This document shows, piece after piece, positions 1 to 18,300 of a stretch of DNA of 28,049 bases (position 1 is its first letter; every line of letters starts with the position of its first letter). Source of the stretch: a virus (taxonomy: Duplodnaviria > Heunggongvirae > Uroviricota > Caudoviricetes). Position numbers and translations under genes: made by a program. The notes below the pieces were generated by a model. The model was not told the DNA's origin. It saw only the letters and a list, made by a program, of their open reading frames with translations, and ran no database searches. Location: IMG/VR virus record IMGVR_UViG_3300050821_002507; one strand, written 5' to 3'.

Positions 1-259
1 TCTCGGACAGAATCTGCGTTCCGCTTGAGTTTCCGGGCAGACTCGTCCAGCCAGAGCCAGACCTGTAGATTATCGTTCCAGAATTTGTCCCATACAGGAA
101 ATCGAACAGCTTACTTACCGTTGACCCGGTTGGGACATTTGTAGAGCCGGTCGGATTCGCGCAAATCTGTCCTGTCGTGAATTGTCCCGTGCAGGCAGCA
201 AATGCCGAGGCCGGGGCAAGTGACAGAATTGCGGCAAAGACAAGAGACCCGATCTTCAT
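1..259 (-). CDS. 5' part of a signal-peptide-bearing, Ser/Thr/Gly-rich phage protein (runs off the left edge; not in the ORF track)
   Basis: ATG at 259-257 overlaps the TAA of 259..738 (TAATG). Manual translation MKIGSLVFAAILSLAPASAFA-ACTGQFTTGQICANPTGSTNVP... stays open to position 2. Confidence 0.8.
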   Translation of the reverse strand, partial: MKIGSLVFAAILSLAPASAFAACTGQFTTGQICANPTGSTNVPTGSTVSKLFDFLYGTNSGTIIYRSGSGWTSLPGNSSGTQILSE

Positions 260-738
260 TATGTTTGGTACCAACTCGCTCCAGTTACAGGGAATGGATT
301 TATCGTCACCCAGCCATATGCGTTGTCTATAACGATGCTTGATTGGCCATCCACAAGTTGACCGCCCGTGAATGTGATCGTTATTTGATTCGTCCCATTA
401 CCAGCATCACCTTTGCCGTCTTTAATGATCACTGGGAACGGGTACGCCATCGCACTCGCAAGAGGAACCACTATCGAAGTCGGAGAACCTATCGTCTTGT
501 CTACGATGATCCTCGTGTCGGTCGATAGCATGTTATATGTCGAACCAGAAGTGATAAGCGTAGTCTCAAGAAACGGGAATGCGGCAAAGAACGATGCAAG
601 AACAGCCGTAGAAACCTGATATGTATTCCCGAGCGCAGCGGTACCAGGAGACACAATCTCCATAACCTCGCCGCCATTTAAGGCTATATTCAGAATATTC
701 TGACTAGTAATTCGTCCATCCAGAGGGATTGCTGCCAT
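259..738 (-). CDS. Phage virion-associated beta-rich protein (tail/fibre-associated)
   Basis: 159 aa. Motif IIKDGKGDAG..QITITFTGGQLVDGQSSIVI recalled from phage structural proteins. Coupled within the late operon. Confidence 0.6.
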   Translation of the reverse strand: MAAIPLDGRITSQNILNIALNGGEVMEIVSPGTAALGNTYQVSTAVLASFFAAFPFLETTLITSGSTYNMLSTDTRIIVDKTIGSPTSIVVPLASAMAYPFPVIIKDGKGDAGNGTNQITITFTGGQLVDGQSSIVIDNAYGWVTINPFPVTGASWYQT

Positions 739-1128
739 TCACGAACTCGTTTCGTATTGTAGAGCGCGAGCAGTCTCGCCGTCCTGCGTGCACCGGATCA
801 TCTGAGGTCCAGCCGCCCATGGCGGTCCTTTTGGATCGGCAAATTGTGTAATCCTAATGGTTTGCTCCTCGTATGCAAAGTTAGGTGTCCTAGCATTAAG
901 GACTGGCATGGGATCTGGTGGCAGGATAATGGTGCGAAATTGCTCATTCGGCACATCTAGACAATTAACCCCCGTGCAAACCAAAAGACCTGTATTGTAT
1001 AATTTTGTACCGGCCCACTCCATCTGCCATTGCAAATCTTGTAACTGGAACCAAAATCCGCAGCGCGAGCACTCACCAAATGCACGAGGATCGTTAGGAT
1101 CAACTTTCGCTCTGCCGTGAGGTCTCAT
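739..1128 (-). CDS. Conserved Cys-rich (CxxC..CxxxxC) phage neck/tail-region protein
   Basis: Start moved to ATG 1128, giving an ATGA overlap with the upstream stop. MRPHGRAKVDPNDPRAFGECSRCGF...LLVCTGVNCLDVP. Confidence 0.7.
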   Translation of the reverse strand: MRPHGRAKVDPNDPRAFGECSRCGFWFQLQDLQWQMEWAGTKLYNTGLLVCTGVNCLDVPNEQFRTIILPPDPMPVLNARTPNFAYEEQTIRITQFADPKGPPWAAGPQMIRCTQDGETARALQYETSS

Positions 1129-2150
1129 TTGGAAATTCTTTGAAACGTGAGCCCGGCACACCTATGCCCGCGATCAATAGCAGCAAAGAGCGAACCCATT
1201 GGTAAATCATAGGCTCTCGCGGCGTTACTTATACTGTCGAACTGATGCCCAGTATCTAAACACACAATAGGCTTCTTAATTTTCTTTTGTCCGCGAGAAA
1301 GGGCCGCCAAAACTTCTCTTTTCTGACTGGCGATCTCATCCTCAGTCCATACCTTCTTTTTAACCGCCTCACGATCTGCGTAACGAAAAGACAGTCCGCT
1401 GTTGGTTTCTCCTCCTCTTTGGCATATTTGAATAACACGCATTTTCTCTATCTCATACGCCGATGCCGCAAGCGTAACGCTTGAATATTCCTTGCTGTCA
1501 GTAATGCACACTACTGGCCGACACTTGTCCTTATTTCTCCTTGCCTCCCAGCCGGCGCGTCTATCGTTCAACGCACTAAGTTGACGGTCAATTTCATCTT
1601 TTGATAGAACCAAATCAGAATATGCAAATGATTTCCCCCCGCACTGAATTTGCCTTCCGTGTAGCATCTCTCCAATGCCTCTTTTACTAATACCGTAGTT
1701 GTCGGCAGCGCTTTTAATGCTCTTAAAAAGAAGACCGTCATTTAGACATACGATAGACCTGAATTTGTGTTCATGGTTGTTGGCTGCATAACATTGCGGA
1801 CTGGGTTTACGCCCCTTAAGCGCCCTGGACGTTTTCTCAAGCCATTCCTTGGTCCGCACAAGACCCACCATACCCTGACCGCCTCTGGTTATGTTATATT
1901 CAGGCCTCAGGAGAGCTATCAGTCTAATTTCCTCTTTCATGAGATCGGTGTAATTCTCTGCGGTTGATATAATCGTCCATTCAAATGCGTCCTCGCCGTA
2001 TTTCCTTATCGCGGCATTAAATACGTGGCATCCCCTGCGCTTACCCTTAGCGTCAGAATAATGCTTAGACCGCCTGACCTTCAGAGCGCGCTTTGTTGCG
2101 CCAATGTAGCGTTTTCCGTTTTTTATATTTGTTGCCATGTAAATAATCAT
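1125..2150 (-). CDS. Free-standing GIY-YIG homing endonuclease with NUMOD3-like and three NUMOD1/IENR1-like DNA-binding repeats
   Basis: N-terminal IIY...RYIG, R, E and N(ITRGG) motifs. Three repeats: SIVCLNDGLLFKSIKSAA, PVVCITDSKEYSSVTLAA, PIVCLDTGHQFDSISNAA. GGAGG RBS 7 nt before ATG 2150. Confidence 0.9.
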   Translation of the reverse strand: MIIYMATNIKNGKRYIGATKRALKVRRSKHYSDAKGKRRGCHVFNAAIRKYGEDAFEWTIISTAENYTDLMKEEIRLIALLRPEYNITRGGQGMVGLVRTKEWLEKTSRALKGRKPSPQCYAANNHEHKFRSIVCLNDGLLFKSIKSAADNYGISKRGIGEMLHGRQIQCGGKSFAYSDLVLSKDEIDRQLSALNDRRAGWEARRNKDKCRPVVCITDSKEYSSVTLAASAYEIEKMRVIQICQRGGETNSGLSFRYADREAVKKKVWTEDEIASQKREVLAALSRGQKKIKKPIVCLDTGHQFDSISNAARAYDLPMGSLFAAIDRGHRCAGLTFQRISK

Positions 2151-2154
2151 TTTG

Positions 2155-2175
2155 TGCCTCCGAATCATTGAGGCA
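2155..2175 (-). promoter_or_regulatory. Hairpin occluding the RBS of the GIY-YIG endonuclease
   Basis: Minus strand TGCCTC-aatgattcg-GAGGCA-caaa-ATG; the 3' arm contains most of the GGAGG SD. Confidence 0.5.
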
Positions 2176-2182
2176 GATACTA

Positions 2183-2863
2183 TTATCTAAAAAATGATGC
2201 GAGTCCAGGGGTAATATACAAACCCACATTCTCTGTATCTTGCTTCATAGCCAACCCAAATGCAATGTCGTAATCTGCCTTGCGCTGCTGTTCCAAGGCA
2301 GGCGCATAGTGCCTTGAAAGTCGATGTGCTAGTCCAGCCGTATATGCATCAAGGAACCTGTACTGAAGATCAGCATTACCTCCCTGACCGGGAACGGCGT
2401 CCTGTATTTGACGGTATCTCCAATATGTAACAACGTATGTATTCGCGCTGTCTGGCGTCGGCCAAAATGTAATTGTCGGGTTCACCGTCCTCAGAAAGAA
2501 GAACGATGTCGGGAACCCTTGCTGTAGAGGAGTCGCTAGTGAGGCATAATCAGTCCGAGAGAACGGCAGAAGTAGCCTATTGCTTCCTCCGGTCGGAGTC
2601 ACATACAGGTCGAGTATCATTATCGTATTTGCCGGAACGTTGTATGTCGCCGTTCCCGATATGAGATTTATGGTCTGCGTATCCTCAAGCCATAATTCCA
2701 ACCCCGAGTTAACCCACTCAGCCTGAAGAAGATTTGCCTCAAGCCTAGCATCAAACATATGCTGGGCCACTATTGATGGCGGCTTAACCTGGATACGAGA
2801 GAACGCATTAAGAAACAGACTACCGAGTTCTGGACCGAAATTATATGTGCCGCTAGTAGTCAT
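2183..2863 (-). CDS. Head-tail adaptor/neck protein (P22 gp4 / T7 gp11-like role inferred)
   Basis: MTTSGTYNF...ARLEANLLQAEWVNSGLELW...GTATYNVP...QQGFPTSFFF...WPTPD pattern recalled from podovirus adaptors. ATGA overlap with the upstream gene. Confidence 0.65.
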   Translation of the reverse strand: MTTSGTYNFGPELGSLFLNAFSRIQVKPPSIVAQHMFDARLEANLLQAEWVNSGLELWLEDTQTINLISGTATYNVPANTIMILDLYVTPTGGSNRLLLPFSRTDYASLATPLQQGFPTSFFFLRTVNPTITFWPTPDSANTYVVTYWRYRQIQDAVPGQGGNADLQYRFLDAYTAGLAHRLSRHYAPALEQQRKADYDIAFGLAMKQDTENVGLYITPGLASFFR

Positions 2864-5037
2864 TGGCAGGTAGTTCCATATCCGGACGGAATCGCATCAG
2901 GTGAAGCAACTTTAGCAGCCAAACTTGAAGTACTGTATGTCATATTGGCGTATCTCACTGCTTCATATTCAGGAGACTGTCCGCGATAAGTGCCGAATTT
3001 CCAATAGTATTGCTGCGTTCCACTGGTCGGTGTCTCTCCTGTAACCCCATTGAAGTTTACCACCTGTATCCCGTTCTGCCATACATGAATCTTTCCCTGC
3101 GCTCCCGTGGGGTCGAAATTAAGTTGTAGAACGTAGTTATACCATACACCCCTCAACTGTTTCCATTCATACGCAACGGTGACTGCTTGATTTGCATCAG
3201 AAACGTATTCAACTCTTCCAATATCTCCTATCTTCGTATTCATATCAAAAGGAGGTGACCCACCACCGGCGGGGTTTATAGTCTGGTGAACCTGTCCATT
3301 AAAGAACCAGTTAGAGGTAAGGGCTGCCCCCGGCTCTATGCACACTGAATAAGACATCCACGCATCTGTTGCGGTAGCGAATTGAGCATTACCGGTAGCC
3401 CCAGTCGATCCATCAAGCTCTACGCGCTCTGAACCTCCAAATGTCCCGATAGTACAATCGTCGTCCACACCACAATTATTGGCATACATATTAAACCGGA
3501 TCATGTTTCCAACACTACCGAATTGAATTGGTCCGGTCACACCACTTGAATTGAGACCGCTTTCAAATCCATAAAGATTCTGTGTCGGCCCTCCAGAAAA
3601 TGCTGGTAGAGTTCCGCCAACCTGAGCAGAGAATCCAGCAGCCTGCGTAAAATTACTCCATCCTGAATCTGGGATCTGATCTGTAATAGACGCATTATTT
3701 GTTTTTTGCGTGGATGACTGGAAAAAATCACTCCCGAGTTTTGAATTGTATAGTTTAATCTCTGTTGTGTATGTGGTTGGTCCCGCTGTAGAGCTACCTA
3801 TATACCACGTCTGAGGAGAAGGCGCAGTACCTCCGCTATATTGCAATGCGCCACCATCGCACACGACAGAAACAGTACCATTTCCCCAAGAAATGCCAAA
3901 TATAGCCGGCAGCGCCATGCTCTGATTCGCAGAAACTAGAGCAACATTACCGCAAATAGAGTATGGCGGAGCGCCGCTACCCTCTCCTCCGTCGTTGAAA
4001 AACATGGCCATCGCAGCATACTGCCAAAGATACCCATTCGATGGAGACCCGGCGAAATACGGGCTCGAAATCTGATGACGGAAATTACCCGCCGCCGCCC
4101 CAGAAGTCGCAAAAACCGCAGTGGCCGCAGAGGCATTCAAAAGCGTAGCGGCCCCATTAGTGAAGCTAACCGCATCTGATTGTCTTGTCGCTATAGTCCC
4201 GCTTGTAAGGATCGGAGACGTGACCCACACCCTTGGTTCTATCTGTCCAAAATCAGCCGCTACAACATCTCCATTTGTCACAATTCGTATGCACAAAGTC
4301 GGATTTATCGTAGTAGCGTCGTAGGTAATAACGAATCTCTGCCAAGAGGCTGAAAGAGAGCCGCTACCTTTTGTAACCGGAGACCAGACTGTCCCAGAGT
4401 GTCCAGGAACAGTCCCCTCCATGGAGATGTCAACTTCTCCGGAGCCGGACACTCGCTTAAGGAACACACTCCCAGTGAACTCAGCGAATGGCGGGTTAGA
4501 CGACGTTACCGATTGACATACCGTTCCGTTACTGGATGTCGCAGTAAGGGTGCTGGCTGCATTAGGAGTATTATCAATTCCAACTGCCGTCTTCGCCACA
4601 GTGACGTTGCTCTTTGTCCACGCAGACTGGGACATATCCCTGGACCACAGGATCGGATTTGTTGTCGCCGCAGTCTCATATAGTAGACCTAAATCTGTAA
4701 CCCTAGCAGTATTGTTTGGAAAGCTAGACCAGTGACCATCACTCCATTGGGCGTATCCACCGTTATTTGTAGCAGAAAGGCAGGCTGTAAGTGTTGTGCA
4801 GTTCTGACCAAGATAAACACCGGAAACAAAATTGAGATCAATGGTCGGAAGAGTCAGGCCGAATAGTTGAGCCACTTGACCCAGGGTGGCCTTGAAATCA
4901 CCACCATTATGCCCAACGGCGACAGAATCCTCAGACGATAAATTTGGCACAGTAGGAAGGCCCGGAATCCCACCAGACTGCCCAAATGCAGGCACAGTCA
5001 ATAGTCCAAGCATTACTAGAAATCTAATTAAGGCCAC
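2860..5037 (-). CDS. Signal-peptide-bearing fibre/receptor-binding protein: phage fibre beta-sandwich domain plus C-terminal polysaccharide-lyase-like jelly-roll domain
   Basis: N-terminus MALIRFLVMLGLLTVPAFG-Q. GLLYE..TN...QIE...TSPILT..TR..D fibre motif. C-terminal ERVEL, NGQVH, GGGSPPF and YWKFGTYR resemble the PF14099-type lyase fold. Confidence 0.65.
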   Translation of the reverse strand: MALIRFLVMLGLLTVPAFGQSGGIPGLPTVPNLSSEDSVAVGHNGGDFKATLGQVAQLFGLTLPTIDLNFVSGVYLGQNCTTLTACLSATNNGGYAQWSDGHWSSFPNNTARVTDLGLLYETAATTNPILWSRDMSQSAWTKSNVTVAKTAVGIDNTPNAASTLTATSSNGTVCQSVTSSNPPFAEFTGSVFLKRVSGSGEVDISMEGTVPGHSGTVWSPVTKGSGSLSASWQRFVITYDATTINPTLCIRIVTNGDVVAADFGQIEPRVWVTSPILTSGTIATRQSDAVSFTNGAATLLNASAATAVFATSGAAAGNFRHQISSPYFAGSPSNGYLWQYAAMAMFFNDGGEGSGAPPYSICGNVALVSANQSMALPAIFGISWGNGTVSVVCDGGALQYSGGTAPSPQTWYIGSSTAGPTTYTTEIKLYNSKLGSDFFQSSTQKTNNASITDQIPDSGWSNFTQAAGFSAQVGGTLPAFSGGPTQNLYGFESGLNSSGVTGPIQFGSVGNMIRFNMYANNCGVDDDCTIGTFGGSERVELDGSTGATGNAQFATATDAWMSYSVCIEPGAALTSNWFFNGQVHQTINPAGGGSPPFDMNTKIGDIGRVEYVSDANQAVTVAYEWKQLRGVWYNYVLQLNFDPTGAQGKIHVWQNGIQVVNFNGVTGETPTSGTQQYYWKFGTYRGQSPEYEAVRYANMTYSTSSLAAKVASPDAIPSGYGTTCQ

Positions 5038-5363
5038 TGTACAACACCAAGATTTACAAAGCCAGAAGTCCAGGCAGTAACAACCAACCTTAAGGCTGAA
5101 ATAGGATACACAATGTTGCTGTATGCGCTTTGCGTAAGGCCATTAAGAACAGAGTGATTGACCCAGTTAGTTATCGCAGCCTGCGGATAATCTCCTGTGA
5201 CTTGTACCGAATATGTTAGAGCCCCAGATACCGTACATATAAGCCCTAGAGACCCTATGGGCTGTTCCGCTAATTGTCCTATCAAAAACGACTGAGAGGT
5301 ATATGGAACTATTGGAGAAGACGACCCGACTCCTCCAAGGGTTGCTCCTATATAAACCTTCAT
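5028..5363 (-). CDS. Small beta-sandwich virion protein, paralogue of the C-terminal domain of 10728..11390
   Basis: Shared GSSS, VSGA.(F/Y)(T/S)VQ.T.D.P, NH and PIS..RL motifs. No signal peptide. Confidence 0.65.
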   Translation of the reverse strand: MKVYIGATLGGVGSSSPIVPYTSQSFLIGQLAEQPIGSLGLICTVSGALTYSVQVTGDYPQAAITNWVNHSVLNGLTQSAYSNIVYPISALRLVVTAWTSGFVNLGVVQWP

Positions 5364-7411
5364 CAGTTGTGCGCCGGATCAGCTAGTGGCGTCGTTTCTA
5401 GCGCAGACAAGTCACTCACCCCGTACTTGGCCGTGCAGTCAGAGCCCTGGGAGCACACCTGCATGTTCCCATAGCGCACGCCAAAGGTCGGGAGGTTGTT
5501 CCCCGTCTCGCGATATATTCCGTACTTCCAGTAGGCCGCGTTGTTCGTCCCGTTGCCGCCGAACAGCGAGGCGCCGGAGTGACTCGCGATCTGCACCATC
5601 GTCCCTTCGGTGACGGTGTCGAGCCACACATTGAACGTGTCATTCGTGCCGCTCGTAGATGTTCCTACCTGATAGACGAAGTGATACCAGCGCCCCCTCG
5701 TGATCGCCACGCCGGTCGTGGCGCTGCTCTGGGTCGCGGTGGTCGCGTTGTTGGTGTAGACGAACCACGTGTCCGACACGCTGTTCGAGTTGGACATCGT
5801 GTTGAAGATGCAGCAGATCCCGCCCGCCACCGTGTGCATCTGGCCGTTGATGTTCCACGACGACGTGTACGCGGTCCCAGGCTCGATGTAGACCGCGTAG
5901 GCGATCCAGAATGTCGTGCCGATCGAGAACTGAGCTGAGCCGCCGGCACCGTCCACCTCGGAGCGATTGGTACCGTCCCATGCATCGGCGAGACCGTTGA
6001 TCTGGAACCGCCAGTTGTCCCCAAGCCGGCCGGCCGCTGTGGAGCCGTTAGTTGCCTGCCACTGCGTATAACTGTTCCACGACGCCTCGGAGTTGTAGGC
6101 GTTGCCGTTGACCGTGATGGCACCGACGCCGGGTGGGTTCGGAGCGAAGCCGCCGAGCTGTATCTGGTTCCAGTTCCATCCGTCTCCGAGTGGGTTCGTG
6201 AGCGCGACCGACGCGGCGGCTCCGGTCGTGATTCCCCAGTAAGATACCTGATTGGCCGAGATGGAATTTCGCGATGTCTGGGTACCCGAGGCAACGAGCG
6301 CCTCCACAAACGTGCCGGGCGTCCCGTTGCCGGCGGCGTCACCCATGACGTACAGGCCGACCGCGTTCGGATAGGTCGGAGTGCCCGACCCGGTGCTCAT
6401 AAACTGCGTGCCGCCGTTCCACCGTAAGATTCCACCGGTCGAGTAATCGAATTGCGTCAGATTTTGCCCGCGCCAGACGCCTCCGAACCCCTCTGCGTTA
6501 CCATTGTTGCTGCCGTTTATGTTGTTTGCGAGAACGTCCGGCGCCGCGTTGTTTGACAGACCCCACCGGGAATCACTGGCCGCGCTCGATGTCGTGGTCG
6601 GGTAGACGACGCTGGCGTAGTTGAAATTTGCTGTCGTAATGTCCTCTCCGAAGGACATCACCATGAACGTTTCAACCGTCGCCGTCTTGTAGGAGGCGCT
6701 GTCGGCGGCCTTGAGGTTGCAGGCAGATAGACACCCGAACAGGCATGGCAGTGACGACCCCTGGCACGTCGGGTAATACCCGAGTTGATCGGCCAATGTA
6801 GCCTGCGATGCGTCGTTGGCCCCGGCTTGATCATACAGCTTCGACGCGCCGCAGTTCGTCAGGAACAAGGTCGCGGCGCCGGCATTGCCGTCGATGCCGA
6901 ATCCGGAGCCGGTAAGCGCGGCGAGATTCGTATTGGCACCAACCGTGATATTGACGCCCTCGCGAAACATAAGCTCGCTGCTCGCGGTCGTCGCCGTAAC
7001 TGAGCTGTTGCCGGCCGCATAGAACACCGGGCTGGGGCCGGCGTTGAACACGTGGATCACGGAACCTGATGGGAAGGCGACCCTGGTTGACGCGGTGACG
7101 ACGCTGAGCGTCGCGGTGCCGCAGAGGCTGGATGAGGCCGTGACATCCGGGTCGCACCCGACGAAGCCAATGTCCAGCGTCGTGCTGTCGGAAGATCGCG
7201 TGAGTTGCACCGCCTTGCCGGCGTAGGCAGCACGGACCTTGCGCAGCGAGTAGGCCACGGTCCACGCGCCGGGCGATGCCGCGAAGGTGTCGAGGACGCC
7301 TGTAGAGCATGATGGAGCCGCACCGCTTGCAGCGCCAGAGAATGGTACAATCTGGGCTCCAGCATTGGGCGGCAGAAATAGAACTGAGAGAGCGATCAAA
7401 AGGCGTAGCAT
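5363..7411 (-). CDS. Signal-peptide-bearing fibre/receptor-binding protein: AbfB-like concanavalin-type domain plus polysaccharide-lyase-like domain
   Basis: MLRLLIALSVLFLPPNAGA-Q. AYSLRKVRAAYAGKAVQLTRSSD..DIGF motif. C-terminal NRSEV, IEPG, NGQMH, RGRWYHF and YWKYGIYR are paralogous to 2860..5037. Confidence 0.65.
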   Translation of the reverse strand: MLRLLIALSVLFLPPNAGAQIVPFSGAASGAAPSCSTGVLDTFAASPGAWTVAYSLRKVRAAYAGKAVQLTRSSDSTTLDIGFVGCDPDVTASSSLCGTATLSVVTASTRVAFPSGSVIHVFNAGPSPVFYAAGNSSVTATTASSELMFREGVNITVGANTNLAALTGSGFGIDGNAGAATLFLTNCGASKLYDQAGANDASQATLADQLGYYPTCQGSSLPCLFGCLSACNLKAADSASYKTATVETFMVMSFGEDITTANFNYASVVYPTTTSSAASDSRWGLSNNAAPDVLANNINGSNNGNAEGFGGVWRGQNLTQFDYSTGGILRWNGGTQFMSTGSGTPTYPNAVGLYVMGDAAGNGTPGTFVEALVASGTQTSRNSISANQVSYWGITTGAAASVALTNPLGDGWNWNQIQLGGFAPNPPGVGAITVNGNAYNSEASWNSYTQWQATNGSTAAGRLGDNWRFQINGLADAWDGTNRSEVDGAGGSAQFSIGTTFWIAYAVYIEPGTAYTSSWNINGQMHTVAGGICCIFNTMSNSNSVSDTWFVYTNNATTATQSSATTGVAITRGRWYHFVYQVGTSTSGTNDTFNVWLDTVTEGTMVQIASHSGASLFGGNGTNNAAYWKYGIYRETGNNLPTFGVRYGNMQVCSQGSDCTAKYGVSDLSALETTPLADPAHN

Positions 7412-8310
7412 CAGCAGTTACCCGTGGTGCACGCGACGATCACGATACCGGAACCACCAGCGCCACCTGTCTGCCCGTTCGATGCGCCGCCGCCGCCGCC
7501 GCCCGTATTAGCGGTTCCTGCGGTTCCCGGTGCCAATCCAGAACCCACGCCAGCGCCGCCGCCGCCCGCACCTCCCGCGCCCCCCGTGCCAGAGCCGTTG
7601 AATGTAGCACCACCGCCGCCCCCAGCGTAAGTGACGGATGAGCCCGTGATTGTATTAGCGGTTCCCGCACCTCCCGCGCCACCGGTCGAGTTGGCCGCAG
7701 CGCCGCCGGCTGAGGTTGCACCACCTCCGCCGCCGCACGGAAATAGCGTCCCGCCTCCCAAGCCAGCGCTACCGTTGCTTCCTTGATTTCCTGTTCCGCC
7801 GGCTTGAGAGCCTCCCGCACTTGCTCCGCCACCACCACCAGAGCCACCGGTCGCCCCGGCGGTATTCAATCCGCCGCCGCCGCCGCCGCCATTGCCCGTG
7901 ATCGAACCAAATACCGAGTTGGACCCGGCAGTACCCGTCCCTGAATTAGTGCTAACCGCTCCCGCGCCGCCGCCACCAACGGTTACTGTGGTGTTTCCGG
8001 ATGACACCGAAAAACTGGCGTTGGTTTGATATCCGCCGGCTCCACCGCCACCGCAGGCCGCACCGGCGCCGCCGCCCACTACCAGCACGTTCGCGGTGAA
8101 TGGGGATGGACAATTGAGCGTTCCGCTCGCCGTGAATGTGATGATCGTGTTGCCGCCCGAGGTCGTGCGCGTCCCGCCCGTGCAAGTTCCACCCCCACTC
8201 ACGGCAGGAGTGCCAAGACCGCCATGCGTTGACGGCACTTGCGCGAGGCATTGGAGCCCCGCAAGCAACAGGCCGCAAGATAACAAGTATCTGATTGCCG
8301 AATATCGCAT
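7411..8310 (-). CDS. Signal-peptide-bearing glycine-rich virion-type protein
   Basis: Start ATG 8310, just after the upstream stop. MRYSAIRYLLSCGLLLAGLQCLA-Q. HTF-like IITFTASGTL, VLVVGGG.G..GGGGAGG and terminal GGSGIVIV match the phage glycine-rich domain pattern. Confidence 0.7.
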   Translation of the reverse strand: MRYSAIRYLLSCGLLLAGLQCLAQVPSTHGGLGTPAVSGGGTCTGGTRTTSGGNTIITFTASGTLNCPSPFTANVLVVGGGAGAACGGGGAGGYQTNASFSVSSGNTTVTVGGGGAGAVSTNSGTGTAGSNSVFGSITGNGGGGGGGLNTAGATGGSGGGGGASAGGSQAGGTGNQGSNGSAGLGGGTLFPCGGGGGATSAGGAAANSTGGAGGAGTANTITGSSVTYAGGGGGATFNGSGTGGAGGAGGGGAGVGSGLAPGTAGTANTGGGGGGASNGQTGGAGGSGIVIVACTTGNC

Positions 8311-8312
8311 GA

Positions 8313-9926
8313 TCAAAGCTGCGCATACCAGATGTCGATATCCACACCACCGGTTCCGGTGCTGTTGATGCACAATCCATTAGCCGATGTGTTCTTGAGC
8401 CCACTCCAGAAGTTTCCGCCCCAAGTCTCACCCGTATTAGCAGCCTCGGTTGCAACACCTGTGATCTGGGTATTTGCCGAGGAACAGTTTGCGTTCGTCG
8501 ATGCCGTGTTCTCCAGAAACCACGTCGCGACCCCAGCAGCGCGCGAACGCCACGAGCAAACATAGATGGTCTGCGATGCCACGCCCTGCACGGCAAGCGT
8601 ATCGGTCGCAGTCGTGATGTGCTTAAAGACGTGGCTGTCGCACGAGATGAGACCGGCGATGTGCCCACCCGTGGCACCAGAAGCGTTAGCTCCGAGATAG
8701 ACAGCATTCGCGGGCGGCGCGGCGGCCGTCGCAACCGCGCCGACAGCCGCGAGAGCCGTGGTCGGAGACGAGCCCGCGATGGTGGCAGTATCGGTGCCGA
8801 CTGCAACACGTTGAGCGCCGGTCCCGACAGCACCGGTCCCCGTAAGGATCGCCACACTGTTGACCGAGGCGATGTCCTGCCGCAGCGCGCCGGTCGTCGT
8901 CAGAGACAGCGGATCGGTCTGCGCCGTGGTGTAGGACGGTGCGGCCGTGGTCACGGCGCCCATCACAAGCGAGCCGGTCTGCCCGCTCGTGGTCGAGGCT
9001 TGAGCAAGCCCAACGACTGGAGCGTTTACCTTCACGAGAAGATTCCCGGCGTTGTCCATCTGGCATGGCGAGCCGTTGCCCGGCGTGATAGTCGTGGGCG
9101 TGGTCTGAAACTGACAGCCAGCCTGTAGCCAGTTCGCAGGCGCCGCAACGTTCTGCCCGATCGCATCAAGCACGCCGCCGACATTGCCGGTGACGCGGAT
9201 CGTCCCGATGTTCTTAGTGGTCTCGGCCGATAGCGTGGCGTTAACAGAAAATGCCGTGTTGTCTGACGCGATCGTGACGCGCGGCGATCCGGTGCCAGTA
9301 GTCCCGTTGCCCATCAGGGGTGTGACGCCGTTGATCTGCGAAACGTTGACGGACTGGTTCGCAGGCAGCGCCACACTATCGGGCGTGACCAGAAGTTTGG
9401 TCATTGAGGCAATGCCCTGAACGGTTATAACCCCAGAAGCTGCCGTTCCTGCTGTGCCGCTGCCAGTAACCAGCCATGGAGTTGTATTAGCAGTATTTCC
9501 TGGCTGTACCGTCCATGTTCCTGATTGGGCGGCCTGGACAGCAAAAGTCCCCGTCCCAACAACGGTCGCATTGAGATTCGCGGCGGTGCTCTGCGTGACA
9601 GTATCAGTCCAAGACCCCGATTGCGTGGCGGCGACTGTACCTGTTATGGTCGTTGAGGCAAGAGAAACAGGAATAGCCGTTCCACTCGCAATGCCCTGCA
9701 CTGTGATAACATTGGCGTTTGCAGTCCCGGCCGTCCCATAGATCGCCGTTCCAGTAGTACTCCCTAGGACAACCATAGACGATTCAACGCCACTTCCAAC
9801 GTCAACAGACCGCATCGTTACTCCAGATCCAGGAGTCAAGATGACAGTATTATCAGCCGCATAAGACGGCATTGTGCCCACAATGAGCAAAAATGCTGCA
9901 AAGATACGGCTAAGACGCTGGATCAT
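8313..9926 (-). CDS. Signal-peptide-bearing Thr/Ala/Gly-rich repetitive fibre-like protein with a C-terminal beta-sandwich domain
   Basis: MIQRLSRIFAAFLLIVGTMPSYA-A. Internal repeats GTAGTA...VITVQGIAS (x2), QSG.WT (x2), GTG..RV (x2). C-terminal domain is paralogous to 10333..10728. Confidence 0.7.
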   Translation of the reverse strand: MIQRLSRIFAAFLLIVGTMPSYAADNTVILTPGSGVTMRSVDVGSGVESSMVVLGSTTGTAIYGTAGTANANVITVQGIASGTAIPVSLASTTITGTVAATQSGSWTDTVTQSTAANLNATVVGTGTFAVQAAQSGTWTVQPGNTANTTPWLVTGSGTAGTAASGVITVQGIASMTKLLVTPDSVALPANQSVNVSQINGVTPLMGNGTTGTGSPRVTIASDNTAFSVNATLSAETTKNIGTIRVTGNVGGVLDAIGQNVAAPANWLQAGCQFQTTPTTITPGNGSPCQMDNAGNLLVKVNAPVVGLAQASTTSGQTGSLVMGAVTTAAPSYTTAQTDPLSLTTTGALRQDIASVNSVAILTGTGAVGTGAQRVAVGTDTATIAGSSPTTALAAVGAVATAAAPPANAVYLGANASGATGGHIAGLISCDSHVFKHITTATDTLAVQGVASQTIYVCSWRSRAAGVATWFLENTASTNANCSSANTQITGVATEAANTGETWGGNFWSGLKNTSANGLCINSTGTGGVDIDIWYAQL

Positions 9927-9930
9927 AGAC

Positions 9931-10146
9931 TTAGTCCTTCGGAGGTGGTGGCTTGTTCTGTTCGTTGAGTTGAGAAATCAGCTTTTGCAGGAGAGGATTC
10001 GCATCCTTCCATGGCATTTCGGCCAACTTGTTGAGGATGACGTTCGCCTCCTCAGTGGTCACGCTGAGCGTGTGATTCTTTGGAGTCTCTTGGGCTTGCG
10101 CAGAGGAGATGAATGCAAGAGCGATCAAGGCATATACATGCTTCAT
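9931..10146 (-). CDS. Small signal-peptide-bearing helical protein (fibre-associated chaperone-like)
   Basis: MKHVYALIALAFISSAQA-Q followed by LSVTTEEANVILNKLAEMPWKDANPLLQKLISQL. Confidence 0.65.
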   Translation of the reverse strand: MKHVYALIALAFISSAQAQETPKNHTLSVTTEEANVILNKLAEMPWKDANPLLQKLISQLNEQNKPPPPKD

Positions 10147-10157
10147 GTCTTATCCTT

Positions 10158-10346
10158 TCAGAAGATGACTGCTATGTATTGACTGTTGCAGGCTTGGGTG
10201 AAGTCAAGACTATTTGAACATACTGGAGGAGGACCGCTGCCGCCAGCAATCTGCCCAGCGCCTGTTTGTGTCAGTTGAGCGCTGGATTGAAGCGTGGCCA
10301 TAGAAATTATCAAAGCAGCGATAGCCAGAGACTTAAAACTGAGCAT
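10158..10346 (-). CDS. Secreted micro-protein (about 39 aa mature, one Cys pair)
   Basis: MLSFKSLAIAALIISMATLQSSA-QLTQTGAG...CSNSLDFTQACNSQYIAVIF; overlaps the upstream gene. Confidence 0.6.
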   Translation of the reverse strand: MLSFKSLAIAALIISMATLQSSAQLTQTGAGQIAGGSGPPPVCSNSLDFTQACNSQYIAVIF

Positions 10347-10728
10347 ACGACAGGCTGCCTGGATAACCTACGTTCGCTGAAGTGACGGCACAAAGAGAAT
10401 TACCAGGAGGAATAATCCACACAGGACCAACCCCCGTTCCTTTTGTGAATCCAACCTGAGCAATAAGGGCATAGTTACCAGTCACATTTTGCTGCCCCGT
10501 ACCACACGTAGCACCAGTGCCATAAACGAATTGAATGCTCCCAGTCCCCGCCGCTATAACATCAACAGCAGTAACATAGATTCTCTGACCGGAAACCCCT
10601 AGAATCAGCCTAGTTGTTGTAGCTGTTGATATCGTAATTGGAATCGAAACAGTTGCAGTCGGCTTAATCGTCGTCTGCGCAAAAGATGGGGTCGATAGAA
10701 TGAGAAGTGGCGCTACAATCTTCCACAT
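10333..10728 (-). CDS. Signal-peptide-bearing beta-sandwich protein, paralogue of the C-terminal domain of 8313..9926
   Basis: MWKIVAPLLILSTPSFA-Q. Shares TAT.T...GV..Q.IYV, C......TG, N.LC and terminal YAQ(F/L). Confidence 0.7.
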   Translation of the reverse strand: MWKIVAPLLILSTPSFAQTTIKPTATVSIPITISTATTTRLILGVSGQRIYVTAVDVIAAGTGSIQFVYGTGATCGTGQQNVTGNYALIAQVGFTKGTGVGPVWIIPPGNSLCAVTSANVGYPGSLSYAQF

Positions 10729-11390
10729 TAGCCGATCCCCGATTGCAACATACGGAACCTAACCTGACCGGTCCCGGAGTTAATCAAGAGACGGATCATG
10801 GAGATTGGCTCCATATAGGAACCGTCAATATTCGCAGACTGAGCGACCACTAGAGGATGATTGAACGCCAGCGGTGAAGTCACCCCAGCCAGAAGTTGAT
10901 TCGGATCGTCGTAGGTATGCTGAACGGTGAAATTCGCCGCCCCAGAGACTAACTCAACCGCAAATCCTATATTGATATCCTGAACGTGCCAGTTCACCTG
11001 TTGCCACGAAGATGACCCAAATCCGTTAGTCCCCGCAATAACCGTCGAGGCGACTGATGCGCTTGGGGTGATACTTGTTACCGTGACGAAGTCCAAATTT
11101 GACTGCGCGGCACCACCATTCGACCCGACAAACGTGTCAGTAATCACGCTACCAGTAGAGTTGGTCCCGACCACGACCCAATTGATGCCGCTGTCATCCC
11201 CGCCAGATGTAAGAATTACCCTTCGGCCTACAGCAGTGTTGGTCGATGACTTGGTATCTATCGTAGCAACACCAGACGTAACGGCAGACCCATTAAGAGT
11301 CAGTTTCGCCGTAGCCGGGCTCTGACTCAAAGCAATGTTGTTCGAGCTAGAGGCCGCCATCGTCTTGTTGAAAACAATCGGGATACCCAT
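10728..11390 (-). CDS. Two-domain beta-rich virion structural protein
   Basis: 220 aa, Ser/Thr/Gly-rich. RRVILTSGGDDSGI...VVVGT...ITDTFVG N-domain; C-domain is paralogous to 5028..5363. No signal peptide. Confidence 0.65.
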   Translation of the reverse strand: MGIPIVFNKTMAASSSNNIALSQSPATAKLTLNGSAVTSGVATIDTKSSTNTAVGRRVILTSGGDDSGINWVVVGTNSTGSVITDTFVGSNGGAAQSNLDFVTVTSITPSASVASTVIAGTNGFGSSSWQQVNWHVQDINIGFAVELVSGAANFTVQHTYDDPNQLLAGVTSPLAFNHPLVVAQSANIDGSYMEPISMIRLLINSGTGQVRFRMLQSGIG

Positions 11391-13273: not shown

Positions 13274-14272
13274 TCATGTCGCCGTCGCCGGCTCCGTTGT
13301 GGCCATAGACGCCACATATTGCGTAATCAGACTGACATTCCACAGAGTATGCGGTATGTCATTTTCGTCTATCAGAAGAATGCACTTGTCACAATCTTGG
13401 ATATTTACTGTCCTGCCGTTAATGGCCGGTATTTTCGTATCTAATTCCTCATTGTACGAGGTCAGTTTTCCGAAGTTCTTTAACTCGCTAAGCAGCCTTG
13501 CAACCCTAGCCTCTGCTATCGTACTATACTGACCGAGATCGATAGTCTCTTTTTCTATGTGTATTCTTGCTCGGAACCATCCACCGTGTGGATATACGCC
13601 TTGATATCCGGTCCTACTTCTTCTGGTGGCGCTCCTAGAATTGTGGCTATTCTCACTCTTTGTGGCGTCTCGTAGATTCAGCCACCTATTGTCATTTCTA
13701 ACCCTATTGATGTGATCTATCTCAAATTCAGGCCAATCTCCCGTCATATAAAACCAAGCCAGGATATGCTCTAGGTACTTTTTGTAGTCGATCCCTATGC
13801 TGCGATAGCCCTTGCCGTGAGTGGTGCCGGCTCTATCGCCTATATTAGCCACCGAAGAGGCCACCCTCCACGTAAACCAACCCGTGTCAGGCTCGTAGTA
13901 AAGAAGCTCCTTCAGCCGACCCAGCGTCAGGGCCGTGGACTTGATATCTTCTGGATCCTTATCATGAACCAGAATATTGGAGACCCTATTATCGGTCTTA
14001 TTCCCATTCAGGTACTTTATGCGTCCTTTGGGCCACTCGCCATTGACATAAAGCAGCGCCAGTAGACCAGAGTTGTAATTGACCGCGTCTACCGAGATCA
14101 TGACGTAGCCAAGTGAACTTATCCTGCCGGCACCAACCTTACCGTGCTTACGATCTTCCGAGGTCCACGTTCTGGCCTGCTGGCGTCTCGTAAAGATGCC
14201 GAGTTCGGCATCGTAGTGAAACAGTTCCTTCAACCTATCTTGTGTCGGCCTTGGCTTCGTATTCGTATCCAT
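13274..14272 (-). CDS. Free-standing HNH homing endonuclease with a duplicated (first copy degenerate) HNH module and an AP2 domain
   Basis: Two copies of RLKEL.HY...G.FT...G...I......L.....GEWP. The second has EIDHINRVRNDNRWLNL, the first has RIKYLNGNKTDNRVSNI. AP2-like SRTGYQGVY...FRARI...IDLGQY follows. Confidence 0.9.
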   Translation of the reverse strand: MDTNTKPRPTQDRLKELFHYDAELGIFTRRQQARTWTSEDRKHGKVGAGRISSLGYVMISVDAVNYNSGLLALLYVNGEWPKGRIKYLNGNKTDNRVSNILVHDKDPEDIKSTALTLGRLKELLYYEPDTGWFTWRVASSVANIGDRAGTTHGKGYRSIGIDYKKYLEHILAWFYMTGDWPEFEIDHINRVRNDNRWLNLRDATKSENSHNSRSATRRSRTGYQGVYPHGGWFRARIHIEKETIDLGQYSTIAEARVARLLSELKNFGKLTSYNEELDTKIPAINGRTVNIQDCDKCILLIDENDIPHTLWNVSLITQYVASMATTEPATAT

Positions 14273-14277
14273 CTTGG

Positions 14278-14330
14278 TTCTCCACTGTTTGCCTATTCTG
14301 GCAATATACAGTGGAGAAAGATTTTGTCAA
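14278..14330 (-). promoter_or_regulatory. Sigma70-like promoter (TTGACA-N16-TATATT) embedded in a hairpin that sequesters the HNH gene RBS
   Basis: Inverted repeat TTCTCCACTGT (14278-88) / ACAGTGGAGAA (14308-18) plus TTGCC/GGCAA. The GGAGA SD lies in the stem. -35 at 14325-30, -10 at 14303-08. Confidence 0.65.
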
Positions 14331-14337
14331 GTGACCT

Positions 14338-15264
14338 TTAGCTGGTCGGTGCGGAGCCCCAGATGCTACGGGGATCGTTGTAATTAAAGCTATATCTCTC
14401 CCATCCCTTCACCATGAGATTGTCCGTGGTAAAATCGACCTGCATGTCGATCTCGAACGGCTCGCGCTCCAGGTAGAGGAGGCCCGGCTGGTCGGTCTTG
14501 AGGTACCACGGAAATGCGGAGGTGAAGAACACGTCCTTCACGTACTCGCTGATGCCGCCGGCAACAGTTGGGAGGACGTTGATGTCGTTGTTCGCCGTAC
14601 CTGGGCGAAGCTCTGTCCTGAGAAGGCGGAGGGCGGTCGGCTCGTTGTTCGGGTGAATAACGAGCGTCTTTCCCGTGGCCATCATGCGGAGGCCGGCGTT
14701 GTCGTAGAAGCCGGTCTGGATCGAGATCATCCCGTTCAGCAGGGATGCTTCGTTCAGGTCTACGTCTGTCGTAGGACGGTTTGCCCACGTAGTCGGACCG
14801 GATCCGCCAGGAGGCAGTGGGTGGGCAGTGCTCAGGAGAGCAACGCCGTCGCCGCCGACTGTCGTGTCGTAGGTCGTGCTGTTGTTGAACACGGCCGCAG
14901 CGTAGATTTCCTTGGTCTGGGCGAAAGAACGCTGGAGACCAAGGTTTGACGGGCGGAACTGCGCCTTGTAGAGGTTGTCCGCGATCGTGTTGCGGGTGAT
15001 AGCGTAACCCAAACCGATTCCAGTGTGAAGCTGGTTGTAGACCCACGCCTCACCGGAGGAGTTGTCGAAGATCGTCTGACCACCGTCCGACTTAAGCTGG
15101 GCGAGTGGCAGGAACCGCATGGAAGCAGTACGCTCCTGCGCCATCTCGGACTTGCCTTGGTCGAACAGCTTTGGCCAGATCGACGGCCACTGCTTGTATT
15201 CACCTGTGACACCACGGAGACCCGGCAGCAGGAGGTCCCGAATGGCTGCGACGTTAATTGCCAT
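14338..15264 (-). CDS. Major capsid protein (HK97-fold, Mu gpT-like)
   Basis: 308 aa. LLLPGL, W..LF, YAITRNTIADNLY, LLST.HP, L.E.SL, LVIHP.N, W(F/Y).KTD..GL and RYSF...DPR..WGS motifs. Located downstream of the scaffold and GroES genes. Confidence 0.88.
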   Translation of the reverse strand: MAINVAAIRDLLLPGLRGVTGEYKQWPSIWPKLFDQGKSEMAQERTASMRFLPLAQLKSDGGQTIFDNSSGEAWVYNQLHTGIGLGYAITRNTIADNLYKAQFRPSNLGLQRSFAQTKEIYAAAVFNNSTTYDTTVGGDGVALLSTAHPLPPGGSGPTTWANRPTTDVDLNEASLLNGMISIQTGFYDNAGLRMMATGKTLVIHPNNEPTALRLLRTELRPGTANNDINVLPTVAGGISEYVKDVFFTSAFPWYLKTDQPGLLYLEREPFEIDMQVDFTTDNLMVKGWERYSFNYNDPRSIWGSAPTS

Positions 15265-15267
15265 GGC

Positions 15268-15900
15268 TTAGACCCCCGTCTGCGTCTTGTAGATTTGGTT
15301 GTTGAACGACACGATCACGTTGTTCGACGCCGTCGTGACATCCGTTCCGTTCACCCCAGGAGGGGATGTAACGAGGTTTACGACCTTGAATGGCAGAGTC
15401 GCCGCCGAGGCCGCAGAAGGCGTTGCCAGCGACATTCCAGAGAATCCAGTGGTCGTGCTTCCCACCGGGGTTGCCGTAATGTCGGCGCCAAATCCAAGGT
15501 AGGTCGCGTCGATTGGACCTGTGGTGGCTTGGACCATCCACAGAGAGTTAGGGTCATCGACGACATAGCACTCTACGTCGCCAGTGGCGTCTGAGCCCGG
15601 CCAGTAGTTGCTGTAAATCGTCTTTTTCTGACTGGTGGAGAAGTACGTGCACCCCGTAAAGATGCCGGCAAGCTGCTTCGTGGCGCTTCCGTCACCGTTG
15701 GCCCATTGAAGAACGTACCCCAAGGCGCTCAGGCCAGTATCACCACTGATCCAGAAGCGCACAGCATCACCGAAGTAGACTGCCGTGGTGTACGTGGACT
15801 TGATCTTGTACGGGGTTGGGCTGCCTGCGCGCGCAAAGTTGACCGGCCCAGAAGCCGTCCCCATCTGCACGAACCCGAAGGCTCCTGCTGTGTTCGCCAT
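15268..15900 (-). CDS. Head decoration/cement-like protein preceding the capsid gene
   Basis: GAGGAG RBS before ATG 15900. MAN..GAFGF...Y.IKS.Y.TAVYFGD.V...AGIF.GC.Y...VVDDP pattern. Confidence 0.65.
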   Translation of the reverse strand: MANTAGAFGFVQMGTASGPVNFARAGSPTPYKIKSTYTTAVYFGDAVRFWISGDTGLSALGYVLQWANGDGSATKQLAGIFTGCTYFSTSQKKTIYSNYWPGSDATGDVECYVVDDPNSLWMVQATTGPIDATYLGFGADITATPVGSTTTGFSGMSLATPSAASAATLPFKVVNLVTSPPGVNGTDVTTASNNVIVSFNNQIYKTQTGV

Positions 15901-16129
15901 GTCGCTCCTCACGTCACCGCACGCAGCGGATCGGCCTGAAATCGGTACTGCCGAAGCAGCTATGTTTTCTGGGTGGCAAGTGTCGCGGCGCGCGACTTGC
16001 GGTCCATCCGGCTAAGCCGGGGAATCCGACCATAGTTCTCTCAGCGCGAGAGCCCTTGCGGTCCTTCAACATCGCGGCTTGCGACATTGGCTATTGTCGA
16101 ATGTTAACTTTCTAATTACCCCCAAGCAA
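15901..16129 (-). promoter_or_regulatory. Promoter TTGCTT-N17-TAACAT plus an approximately 190-nt structured 5' leader of the capsid operon
   Basis: -35 at 16124-29, -10 at 16101-06. The leader has a cUUCGg hairpin (15948-59), a GCAAGT/ACTTGC stem, CCGGC/GCCGG, CTCTC/GAGAG, and a 10-nt repeat GGACCGCAAG (15996-16005, 16055-64). Confidence 0.5.
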
Positions 16130-16576: not shown

Positions 16577-16610
16577 GTGCATATTGGCGGCCATAGAGAG
16601 GTTGCCCGCC

Positions 16611-17516
16611 ATGAATGTAGATCTGACAGACCCGATTTTTCACGATGAAAACAAGGCTCGCGAGCACCTTGAGGCGCAGCGCTGGCCCGATGGCCCGTTC
16701 TGCCCGCATTGCGGCGAGGTCGATAACATTTGCCGATTACATGGCAAGTCCCACCGCCCCGGCCTGTTCCAGTGCAACTCATGCCTTCAGGCATTTACGG
16801 TTATGGTCGGCTCGGTTTTCGAGTCGTCGCATATCCCGCTGACCAAGTGGGTACTGGCCTTTCACCTGATGGCCGCGAGCAAGAAGGGTATGAGTGCCCT
16901 ACAGCTACAGCGGATGCTCGGCCTTGGCTCCTACCGGTCGGCTTGGTTCATGTGCCACCGTATCCGTGAGGCCATGAAGCCGGCCAAGCCAAGCCCGTTG
17001 GGTGGCCCTAAGAAGGTTGTCGAGGCAGACGAGACCTTCATCGGCGGCAAAGCCAAGAACCGCGCCTACGCCAAGAAGCCCCCAAAGAAAGAGGCGGTCT
17101 TTGCGTTGGTCGAGCGGGACGGCGAAAGCCGCTCATTCCATGTCGCCAACGTGAAGGCAAAGACCTTGCGCGAAGCCATCGTCAAGACGGCAGACCGTAA
17201 GTCATTCCTGATGACCGACGAATCGCCGTCCTACGAAACGGTTGGCGCAGAGTTTGCCCTTCACGCCACGGTCAACCATTCGCAGAATGAATACGTGCGC
17301 GCCGACTGGCACACGAACACGGTGGAAAGCCGTTTCGCTCTGATGAAGCGCGCCGTCTATGGGACGCACCATTCAGTCAGTCAGGCCCATCTGCACCGCT
17401 ATTTAGTCGAATGGGACTACAAGTGGAACACCCGCAAGATGAAGGATGGGGAACGTGCCGCGCTTGCCGTCTATGGTGCCGGTGGCAAGCGTCTCACGTA
17501 CCGCAATCCTAACTGA
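16611..17516 (+). CDS. IS1595-family (ISXO2-like) DDE transposase
   Basis: Zn ribbon CPHCG..CNSC, HTH region, VEADET, MTDE, NTVESRF and HLHRYL.E motifs. AGAGG RBS before ATG 16611. Confidence 0.97.
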   Translation: MNVDLTDPIFHDENKAREHLEAQRWPDGPFCPHCGEVDNICRLHGKSHRPGLFQCNSCLQAFTVMVGSVFESSHIPLTKWVLAFHLMAASKKGMSALQLQRMLGLGSYRSAWFMCHRIREAMKPAKPSPLGGPKKVVEADETFIGGKAKNRAYAKKPPKKEAVFALVERDGESRSFHVANVKAKTLREAIVKTADRKSFLMTDESPSYETVGAEFALHATVNHSQNEYVRADWHTNTVESRFALMKRAVYGTHHSVSQAHLHRYLVEWDYKWNTRKMKDGERAALAVYGAGGKRLTYRNPN

Positions 17517-17999: not shown

Positions 18000-18231
18000 T
18001 CAATTCCGAAAACCTCTAATTGCCCATCCCAAAGCCGAACCGAACGCCAGCACAAGCACGGGAGGGATCAGGGCAATTTTGATGGCTGTTTGAATGGCGA
18101 TCTTTCTAGAGCCGAGAAGTTCAAGTTGTAAGTCAGATATAATCGTGCCCTGCGGCGGGTCAGGGGGCGGTAGGCTTAAAACCGCTACCGTACCAACCGC
18201 ACCAATCCAAAGTACGGAGAGGACAATCCAC
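18000..18231 (-). pseudogene. 3' part of a two-TM membrane protein gene interrupted by the inner IS (5' part at 21326-21362)
   Basis: Removing the inner element and one TSD restores an 86-aa ORF MRFARGFLRLWIVLSVLWIGAV...GSALGWAIRGFRN, paralogous to 20038..20340. Confidence 0.9.
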
Positions 18232-18273: not shown

Positions 18274-18300
18274 GAGGCCATCACACAGGGATCGATGGTC

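Follow-up and report, generated by a model that had tools for sequence, protein, structure and literature searches.

We analysed a 28,049-nucleotide stretch of DNA from an uncultured tailed phage of soil or freshwater (Caudoviricetes; IMG/VR record IMGVR_UViG_3300050821_002507), referred to here as the window, in which eight genes of a virion operon encode proteins with predicted Sec-type signal peptides (leaders). Every gene in the first 15.9 kb of the window lies on the minus strand, and together these genes form a podovirus-type late operon that begins with a scaffold-like protein and the major capsid protein and reaches, at the window's edge, a long fibre (Table 1). Seven of the eight leader-bearing genes lie between the genes for a signal-less 220-amino-acid (aa) protein and an SU10-type head-tail adaptor, and the eighth is the long fibre gene. 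The closest GenBank phage by capsid is the uncultured phage MW202675 (61% identity); capsids of Pelagibacter, Roseobacter and Caulobacter podophages are 30-36% identical, and a megablast search of the window against phage records gave no match. Related capsids are encoded by 181 IMG/VR stretches (individual stretches and contigs are given below as L numbers).

The gene junctions from position 11390 down to 2183 measure -14 to +11 nt, in agreement with the translational coupling described in an earlier, sequence-based reading of the window (hereafter the original prediction). Promoter- and terminator-like sites showed no excess over the shuffled expectation, and none flanks the block of leader-bearing genes. 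Co-transcription with the virion genes is the simplest reading of the tight junctions and of this lack of excess, and the block would then be expressed late with them. By these features it does not look like a moron, which is recognized by its own promoter and terminator or by separate transcription.

Signal peptides and cysteines

The original prediction listed eight open reading frames (ORFs) with Sec-type leaders, six of them with Gln at position +1 of the mature protein. All eight ORFs are present on the minus strand, and each has a canonical Sec/signal peptidase I (SPI) N-terminus, defined as a basic n-region, an uncharged hydrophobic h-region some 8-15 residues long and a cleavage site with small residues in positions -3 and -1. 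We judged this by inspection and with a home-made n/h/c-region heuristic, a crude score and not a trained predictor. The residue at +1 is Gln in 6/8, as predicted, and Ala in the other two; inspection of the eight leaders revealed no lipobox Cys at +1 and no twin-arginine motif. The heuristic scored the eight ORFs at 31.5-44.6 and all remaining genes of the module at 20.3 or less, or not at all, and the adaptor, 111-aa and 220-aa proteins, named as internal controls in the original prediction, are signal-less as described. About 10 of the 134 other six-frame ORFs were flagged (about 7%), mostly small transmembrane-like ORFs at 18-24 kb. Against this background, leaders on seven of eight consecutive genes are far beyond chance (about 6e-8 by our own binomial arithmetic).

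The leaders are also kept across divergent homologues of the lyase, fibre-repeat and tip-domain families described below, a comparison that the original prediction had suggested. For the 725-aa protein, 11 of 12 close homologues (48-77% identity) retain a leader despite sequence drift, seven of them with Gln at +1. The GTG start of this gene at position 5037 is supported by a 76% identical homologue with a conserved MAL(K/I)(K/R) start. In L082, the homologues of the 682-, 537-, 62- and 71-aa proteins all bear leaders.

Cysteines set the same proteins apart. The mature Cys count is even in all eight (Table 1), and the eight mature proteins contain 1.65% Cys versus 0.38% in the signal-less virion proteins (4.3-fold). 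The paired motifs pointed out earlier, CTGQFTTGQIC, CTTLTAC and CTTGNC among them, are present. Within the lyase family C80, C86, C174 and C249 are invariant and six further Cys are nearly so. Among the relatives, leader-bearing ORFs had an even number of Cys in 18 cases, an odd number in 7 and none in 1, versus 178, 327 and 200, respectively, for leaderless ORFs. From these sequence features we consider the eight proteins very probably genuine Sec/SPI substrates, and their export and oxidative folding well supported.

Table 1. Features of the window and its late operon. A slash in the leader column marks the predicted cleavage site and is followed by the residue at +1; Cys counts of leader-bearing proteins refer to the mature part.
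Feature	Position	Strand	Leader	Cys	Remarks
Long fibre, first 86 aa	2-259	-	MKIGSLVFAAILSLAPASAFA/A	2	Runs off the window; 758 aa on the full contig
159-aa protein	259-738	-	Signal-less	0	Weak match to phrog_20556 'baseplate protein'; adjoins long fibre
140-aa zinc-ribbon protein	Between GIY-YIG and 159-aa genes	-
GIY-YIG endonuclease	1125-2168	-			After adaptor
SU10-type head-tail adaptor	2183-2863	-	Signal-less		PF24175, 50.1 bits (cut-off 27); right border of variable slot
725-aa protein	2860-5037	-	MALIRFLVMLGLLTVPAFG/Q	10	Beta-sandwich (CBM-like) domain, C-terminal PL7/PL20/heparinase-I-like lyase domain
111-aa protein	5028-5363	-	Signal-less		Paralogue of C-terminal half of 220-aa protein and of 103-aa protein of MW202675
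682-aa protein	5363-7411	-	MLRLLIALSVLFLPPNAGA/Q	12	C-terminal lyase domain paralogous to that of 725-aa protein
299-aa glycine-rich protein (Gly_rich_2)	7411-8310	-	MRYSAIRYLLSCGLLLAGLQCLA/Q	6	CTTGNC at C-terminus
537-aa fibre-repeat protein	8313-9926	-	MIQRLSRIFAAFLLIVGTMPSYA/A	6	QSGTWTVQPGNTANT repeats; jelly-roll tip domain at end
71-aa protein	9931-10146	-	MKHVYALIALAFISSAQA/Q	0	Leader-bearing homologue in L082
62-aa protein	10158-10346	-	MLSFKSLAIAALIISMATLQSSA/Q	2	C-terminal CSNSLDFTQACNSQY motif; homologue in L082
131-aa protein	10333-10728	-	MWKIVAPLLILSTPSFA/Q	2 (invariant)	Stand-alone copy of tip domain of 537-aa protein
220-aa protein	10728-11390	-	Signal-less	0	Left border of variable slot
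433-aa, then 91- and 78-aa proteins	Between HNH and 220-aa genes	-
HNH endonuclease	13274-14272	-			After capsid gene, inside virion operon
Sigma-70-like site (11/12)	14330-14303	-			In 65-nt gap ahead of HNH gene
Major capsid protein	14338-15264	-			After scaffold-like gene
Scaffold-like protein	15268-15912	-			Head end of operon
IS1595-family transposase	16584-17516	+			DDE_Tnp_IS1595, zinc ribbon
Small paralogous protein	18000-18236	-			Hydrophobic N-terminal motif VLSVLWIGAV
IS1595-family transposase	18094-19248	+			DDE_Tnp_IS1595, zinc ribbon
Small paralogous protein	20038-20340	-			Hydrophobic N-terminal motif VLSVLWIGAV
Cpn10/GroES-like ORF	25098-25511	-			Weak match, E 0.005, below cut-off

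Predicted polysaccharide lyases

The two largest leader-bearing proteins of the block share a C-terminal domain (29% identity), and both match PF14099 above its cut-off of 29.9 bits (43.2 bits for the 725-aa and 43.3 bits for the 682-aa protein). An AlphaFold2 (AF2) model of the 725-aa protein had an overall pLDDT of 65, with two beta domains at 70-95, the lyase domain at about 70-90. Foldseek searches with this model retrieved the PL7 alginate lyase 1vav (TM by target 0.56) and the PL20 glucuronan lyase 2zzj (0.63) at E values of about 1e-7, with further matches to heparinase I (3ilr) and to a full-length alginate lyase with a carbohydrate-binding module (CBM; 5zu5). Identities in single-domain structural alignments were 13-18%.

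Residues R538, E540, Q582, K680, G682 and Y684 show no variation across the lyase family. The stretches SERVEL, QVH and YYWKFGTYRGQ of the 725-aa protein and RSEVD, QMH and YWKYGIYR of the 682-aa protein, matched by eye and not by structure-based alignment, resemble RxEL, QxH and YxKxGxY, which we take to be the catalytic Arg/Gln/His/Tyr signature of PL7. The profile matches and the model suggest that both proteins are CBM-plus-PL7/PL20-like polysaccharide lyases.

Homologues of the 682-aa protein with leaders occur in L129 (71% identity) and L082 (42%). No member of the lyase family turned up in a search of 185,579 representative genomes of bacteria and archaea, which argues against a recently acquired host gene, and the only matches of the lyase in cultured phages were weak ones to BcepSauron and Saruman over the lyase domain.

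Fibre-repeat, tip-domain and small proteins

The 537-aa protein has 269 related stretches in IMG/VR, and its homologues carry leaders in ten viral contigs (L003-L008, L012-L014 and L041). In cultured phages the search found nothing beyond a match over a 38-residue repeat. Its C-terminal tip domain, which the 131-aa protein carries as a stand-alone copy, is far more widespread. An exhaustive search yielded 1519 clusters, whose proteins, 130-1400 aa long, nearly always have the domain as their very C-terminal end. Among the best 150 representatives of these clusters 138 have a leader, 67 of the 138 with Gln at +1, and most of those without one look incomplete. The AF2 model of the tip domain (pLDDT 95.6) is an all-beta, ten-strand beta-sandwich. 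It is weakly similar to solved jelly-rolls (TNF-like lectins, the Sf6 needle knob and Ena pilins) and closer to uncharacterized proteins, some of them 'tail proteins' in which the domain forms the C-terminal end.

The 299-aa protein matches PF21722 (50.3 bits; cut-off 24.3) and phrog_2295 (4e-42). The leader sequence LLAGLxCLAQ is common to the Gly_rich_2 proteins of the window, L006 (10430-), L008 (10022-) and L013 (11133-); for signal peptides such conservation of the sequence itself is unusual.

The 62-aa protein ends in CSNSLDFTQACNSQYIAVIF; in the lyase P0007 of L082 a near-identical motif, CSNSLDFSQSCNSQYGGLF, is attached at the C-terminus, and in L082 (4431-4550) this motif also ends a 153-aa protein. 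By its sequence, this C-terminal motif is a predicted small disulfide-loop module.

A hypervariable slot in the virion operon

The seven leader-bearing genes between the 220-aa gene and the adaptor gene, itself conserved in relatives, fill a hypervariable slot. In most relatives with 77-92% identical capsids in which both border genes are seen, the slot is empty, and the adaptor directly follows the 220-aa gene in L143, L150, L155, L162, L163, L184, L192 and L200-L206. In MW202675 the cassette is missing, and none of the 36 genes annotated in the 28-kb half on the virion side carries a leader. Other exported proteins with even Cys numbers, one with BNR/sortilin-type repeats, occupy the slot in L136, L138, L141, L153, L159 and L167, and signal-less large proteins occupy it in L133 and L129. 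The L129 slot also holds glycosyltransferase- and methyltransferase-like genes between two conserved lyases. In L002, a more distant relative, a single small gene separates the adaptor from two leader-bearing paralogues upstream of it.

Six of the seven genes (62-, 71-, 537-, 299-, 682- and 725-like) reappear, each with its leader and in unchanged order, in a 66-kb contig of an unrelated phage, where the block sits in a Phage_portal_3 backbone between portal-side and NUDIX/capsid genes. The empty slots in relatives and the block in an unrelated backbone show that the module is dispensable and moves horizontally, and that the slot is an insertion hot spot.

The 111-aa and 220-aa proteins belong to a family of small signal-less beta proteins. 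Each relative that we examined has one or two copies of it in the corresponding part of the operon, preceding any fibre or lyase genes (elsewhere, L001 21718-22029, L002 7818-8587 and L022 7544-8529). In L129 the 111-aa protein (78% identity) again lies next to the lyase. The family may represent a head/neck decoration or docking protein.

The long fibre downstream of the adaptor

The long fibre gene is in the canonical position after the adaptor and directly follows the gene for the signal-less, Cys-free 159-aa protein, which is 85% identical in L129 and is possibly a virion-bound stub. In the window the fibre's leader is followed by the Cys loop CTGQFTTGQIC. A suspected resemblance between the N-terminus of the 159-aa protein and the mature N-terminus of the lyase family was not supported (hhalign probability 0.3). 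Beyond the edge of the window, the public contig that carries the 725-aa gene completes the 758-aa protein and also encodes a second SU10-adaptor paralogue, a protein with a Collar domain and a 683-aa protein.

In L129 an antisense mobile-element ORF (13875-14850) lies upstream of the long fibre, and the 1379-aa gene call there is an artefact of it. After this insertion no in-frame ATG, GTG or TTG remains ahead of the conserved leader region.

Gln at +1 and the host

In Bacteroidetes, Gln occupies +1 in a mean of 71% of SPI substrates (the Q-rule; PMC5837995), which made a Bacteroidota host a candidate for the window phage. We downgraded it. Gln at +1 is not diagnostic of the host because it is also found in about half of the leader-bearing tip-domain proteins, which come from many sources, and in leaders from a Bryobacterales genome; Shine-Dalgarno motifs precede several of the window's genes, and the capsid relatives infect Alphaproteobacteria. 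The Bryobacterales leaders lie on the chromosome of a metagenome-assembled genome (MAG; L099 3471-8973), where Gln is the +1 residue in 6/9 leaders predicted on what seem to be ordinary genes. A high share of Gln at +1 may thus occur outside Bacteroidota, for example in Acidobacteriota. The fibre repeat of the 537-aa protein is found mainly in MAGs from soil, peat and groundwater, many of them Acidobacteriota.

Other features of the window

The virion operon is interrupted by two homing endonuclease genes (HNH and GIY-YIG), and the sole strong sigma-70-like site precedes the HNH gene. Two IS1595-family transposase genes lie a short way upstream of the head genes and run in the other direction. 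The two small paralogous proteins with a common hydrophobic N-terminal motif are probably membrane proteins within or beside these insertion sequence (IS) elements. The Cpn10/GroES-like ORF is on the same strand as the head genes and upstream of them, as is the annotated co-chaperonin gene of MW202675.

Discussion

We tentatively favour the explanation that the exported proteins form a late accessory module that binds and cuts host surface polysaccharide, removing receptor and matrix before lysis. The eight proteins would be made alongside virion proteins, from genes whose late co-transcription we infer from their arrangement, and would cross the inner membrane through Sec, be cleaved by SPI and fold with disulfide bonds. 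Seven of them would constitute a mobile, hypervariable module of two lyases, a fibre-repeat protein with a jelly-roll tip of sugar-binding type, a stand-alone tip, a glycine-rich protein and two small partners. At work in the infected cell's envelope, either from the periplasm or from outside, this module may bind and cut a presumed substrate, the host's own uronic-acid surface polysaccharide, whether capsule, exopolysaccharide (EPS) or receptor glycan. With receptors and matrix stripped before lysis, the presumed benefit would be progeny that get away instead of being lost to debris. The comparison with relatives shifts the interpretation more than any other part of the analysis. The module is dispensable and moves between backbones, its lyases have an enzyme-type architecture, glycan-modifying genes are among its neighbours, and we detected no virion anchor in its proteins. 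The signal peptides reported for 5% of prophage carbohydrate-active enzymes (CAZymes; PMC13507307) also speak for it.

Several observations weigh against this explanation. The leader region of the long fibre and its C-x-G-Q-F/Y...C loop are kept in all four cases in which the gene was seen (the window, L129, L136 and L163), a conservation that a pure host-surface module leaves unexplained. Several exported members look like fibres, not enzymes. Fibres of 858-2393 aa that have only the repeat in common with the 537-aa protein lack a leader, a signal-less 485-aa fibre with this repeat occupies the same slot in the relative L022, and the tip domain always ends long proteins in the tail-fibre regions of a siphovirus-like and a myovirus-like contig. 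No cultured relative was found among 50,697 phage records. When the lyase family was searched as a profile against the sequences in the PDB, no match appeared, and since no solved chain matches by sequence, the PL7 signature was called by inspection rather than from a structure-based alignment.

The original prediction interpreted the leaders differently, as the mark of fibre, lectin and lyase modules that are exported, folded oxidatively in the periplasm and docked on virions at lysis. The first two steps are well supported by the conserved leaders and the even, enriched Cys; docking at lysis we regard as doubtful. In that model the outer virion parts (the long fibre, the fibre-repeat and tip proteins and the lyases) mature in the periplasm and attach at lysis to particles built in the cytoplasm, with the 159-aa protein or the 111/220-aa family as signal-less stubs; SPI cleavage would often leave a Gln that can cyclize. 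Its scope, comparably uncertain, would be the window phage and many uncultured phages with the tip-domain family. This model is kept alive by the long fibre, which has a conserved leader and whose gene follows that for the 159-aa protein, and by the mostly leader-bearing tip family, which occurs in fibre regions of podovirus, siphovirus and myovirus contigs. It also draws support from the translational coupling of the exported genes inside the virion operon and the repeat that they share with signal-less fibres. At the N-terminus of P0011, a lyase homologue, there is no signal peptide but a set of short repeats, presumably of the type associated with phage fibres, and in T4 the attachment of fibres is a last, self-assembling step. 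However, no exported protein is a core virion part, none has a Pfam or PHROG tail-anchor match or an anchor-type fold match, and the model of the 725-aa lyase is of the enzyme type, CBM plus lyase, with no fibre shaft. The cassette is dispensable within the lineage and differently placed in another backbone, dilution at lysis should disfavour efficient assembly, and we found no experiment on exported virion parts of tailed phages in the literature. We therefore judge docking on the whole to be rather unlikely.

The original prediction also offered an alternative in which the proteins are prophage-secreted decoys or surface modifiers. Surface modifiers are at least as likely as docked virion parts, but the prophage-secreted version is weaker because the genes are inside a tightly coupled late virion operon. 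A related possibility is that they serve host fitness, as secreted auxiliary metabolic enzymes or lysogenic-conversion proteins that feed or re-coat the host. The prophage CAZymes that carry signal peptides have been interpreted as enzymes that may be secreted for carbon cycling (PMC13507307), genes of Porphyromonas phages whose leaders follow the Q-rule have been read as envelope modifiers (PMC10367356), and glycan-modifying genes occupy the same slot in L129. Yet the exported genes overlap virion genes and lack a separate promoter or terminator, and the lyase family is missing from the cellular genomes searched, so we consider a benefit to the host improbable. That the proteins are not exported at all, their hydrophobic N-termini being start-codon artefacts or uncleaved membrane anchors, is very improbable: the heuristic's false-positive rate of about 7% on random ORFs, a public gene call for the 725-aa protein that begins 8 codons later and weak Shine-Dalgarno motifs ahead of several starts would fit it, but n-, h- and c-regions with AxA-type sites persist in homologues less than 50% identical despite drift, the starts are fixed by stop/start overlaps, and even Cys counts distinguish the exported proteins from their neighbours.

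Known systems come close to the window's proteins in part. Secreted modular PL7 alginate lyases with a CBM (5zu5, 7w12), PA1167 (1vav) and the lyases 2zzj and 3ilr, like the window lyases, have one or more beta-sandwich modules followed by a beta-jelly-roll lyase domain, and bacterial secreted PL7-type lyases have an N-terminal Sec leader. Unlike them, the window lyases are phage-encoded inside a virion operon and have no sequence-level match to a solved chain. Depolymerase tailspikes such as P22 gp9, the K5 lyase and HylP are virion-borne. They cut polysaccharide, as the window lyases are predicted to do, and are likewise phage proteins in hypervariable, horizontally exchanged modules, but tailspikes are signal-less trimeric beta-helices with an N-terminal virion anchor and are assembled in the cytoplasm, whereas the window lyases have a leader and a jelly-roll of PL7-like type, and we detected no anchor in them. 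Lom and Bor of lambda, Llp of T5 and Cor are exported phage proteins whose genes lie beside virion genes. These proteins and those of the Porphyromonas phages, for which Gln at +1 has already been noted in print (PMC10367356), use the host Sec pathway through phage-encoded leaders and act in the envelope, as we propose for the window proteins. They are single, small and often have their own promoter, whereas the window has up to seven large, fibre- and enzyme-like, disulfide-rich proteins translationally coupled to virion genes. The mosaic adhesive trimer (MAT) fibres of Bdellovibrio bacteriovorus are phage-fibre-like proteins displayed outside the cytoplasm with diverse adhesive tips (Caulton et al. 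2024; PMC10769870), a resemblance in general features. They are proteins of a predatory bacterium and are not encoded among virion genes. Our literature search found no description of leader-bearing fibre or lyase blocks in tailed-phage virion operons, the Porphyromonas phage leaders, the prophage CAZymes and the MAT fibres being nearest in print. What the window contributes is the empty-slot comparison, the block common to unrelated backbones, the identification of the lyases, the Cys parity, and the size and leader frequency of the tip family.

In the textbook view, tailed phages assemble entirely in the cytoplasm, and their depolymerases are regarded as virion-borne or as released only by lysis. 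These data instead point to a large, conserved and horizontally mobile group of late phage proteins that pass through Sec and whose make-up suits an oxidizing compartment. Either phages would commonly remodel the surface polysaccharide of the infected cell from within before lysis, or part of the virion would be made outside the cytoplasm, an assembly route that would be new for tailed phages. If true, either reading would change how fibres and depolymerases in viromes are annotated and how host range is predicted from such genes, and proteins of this kind would be best expressed with export and disulfide formation.

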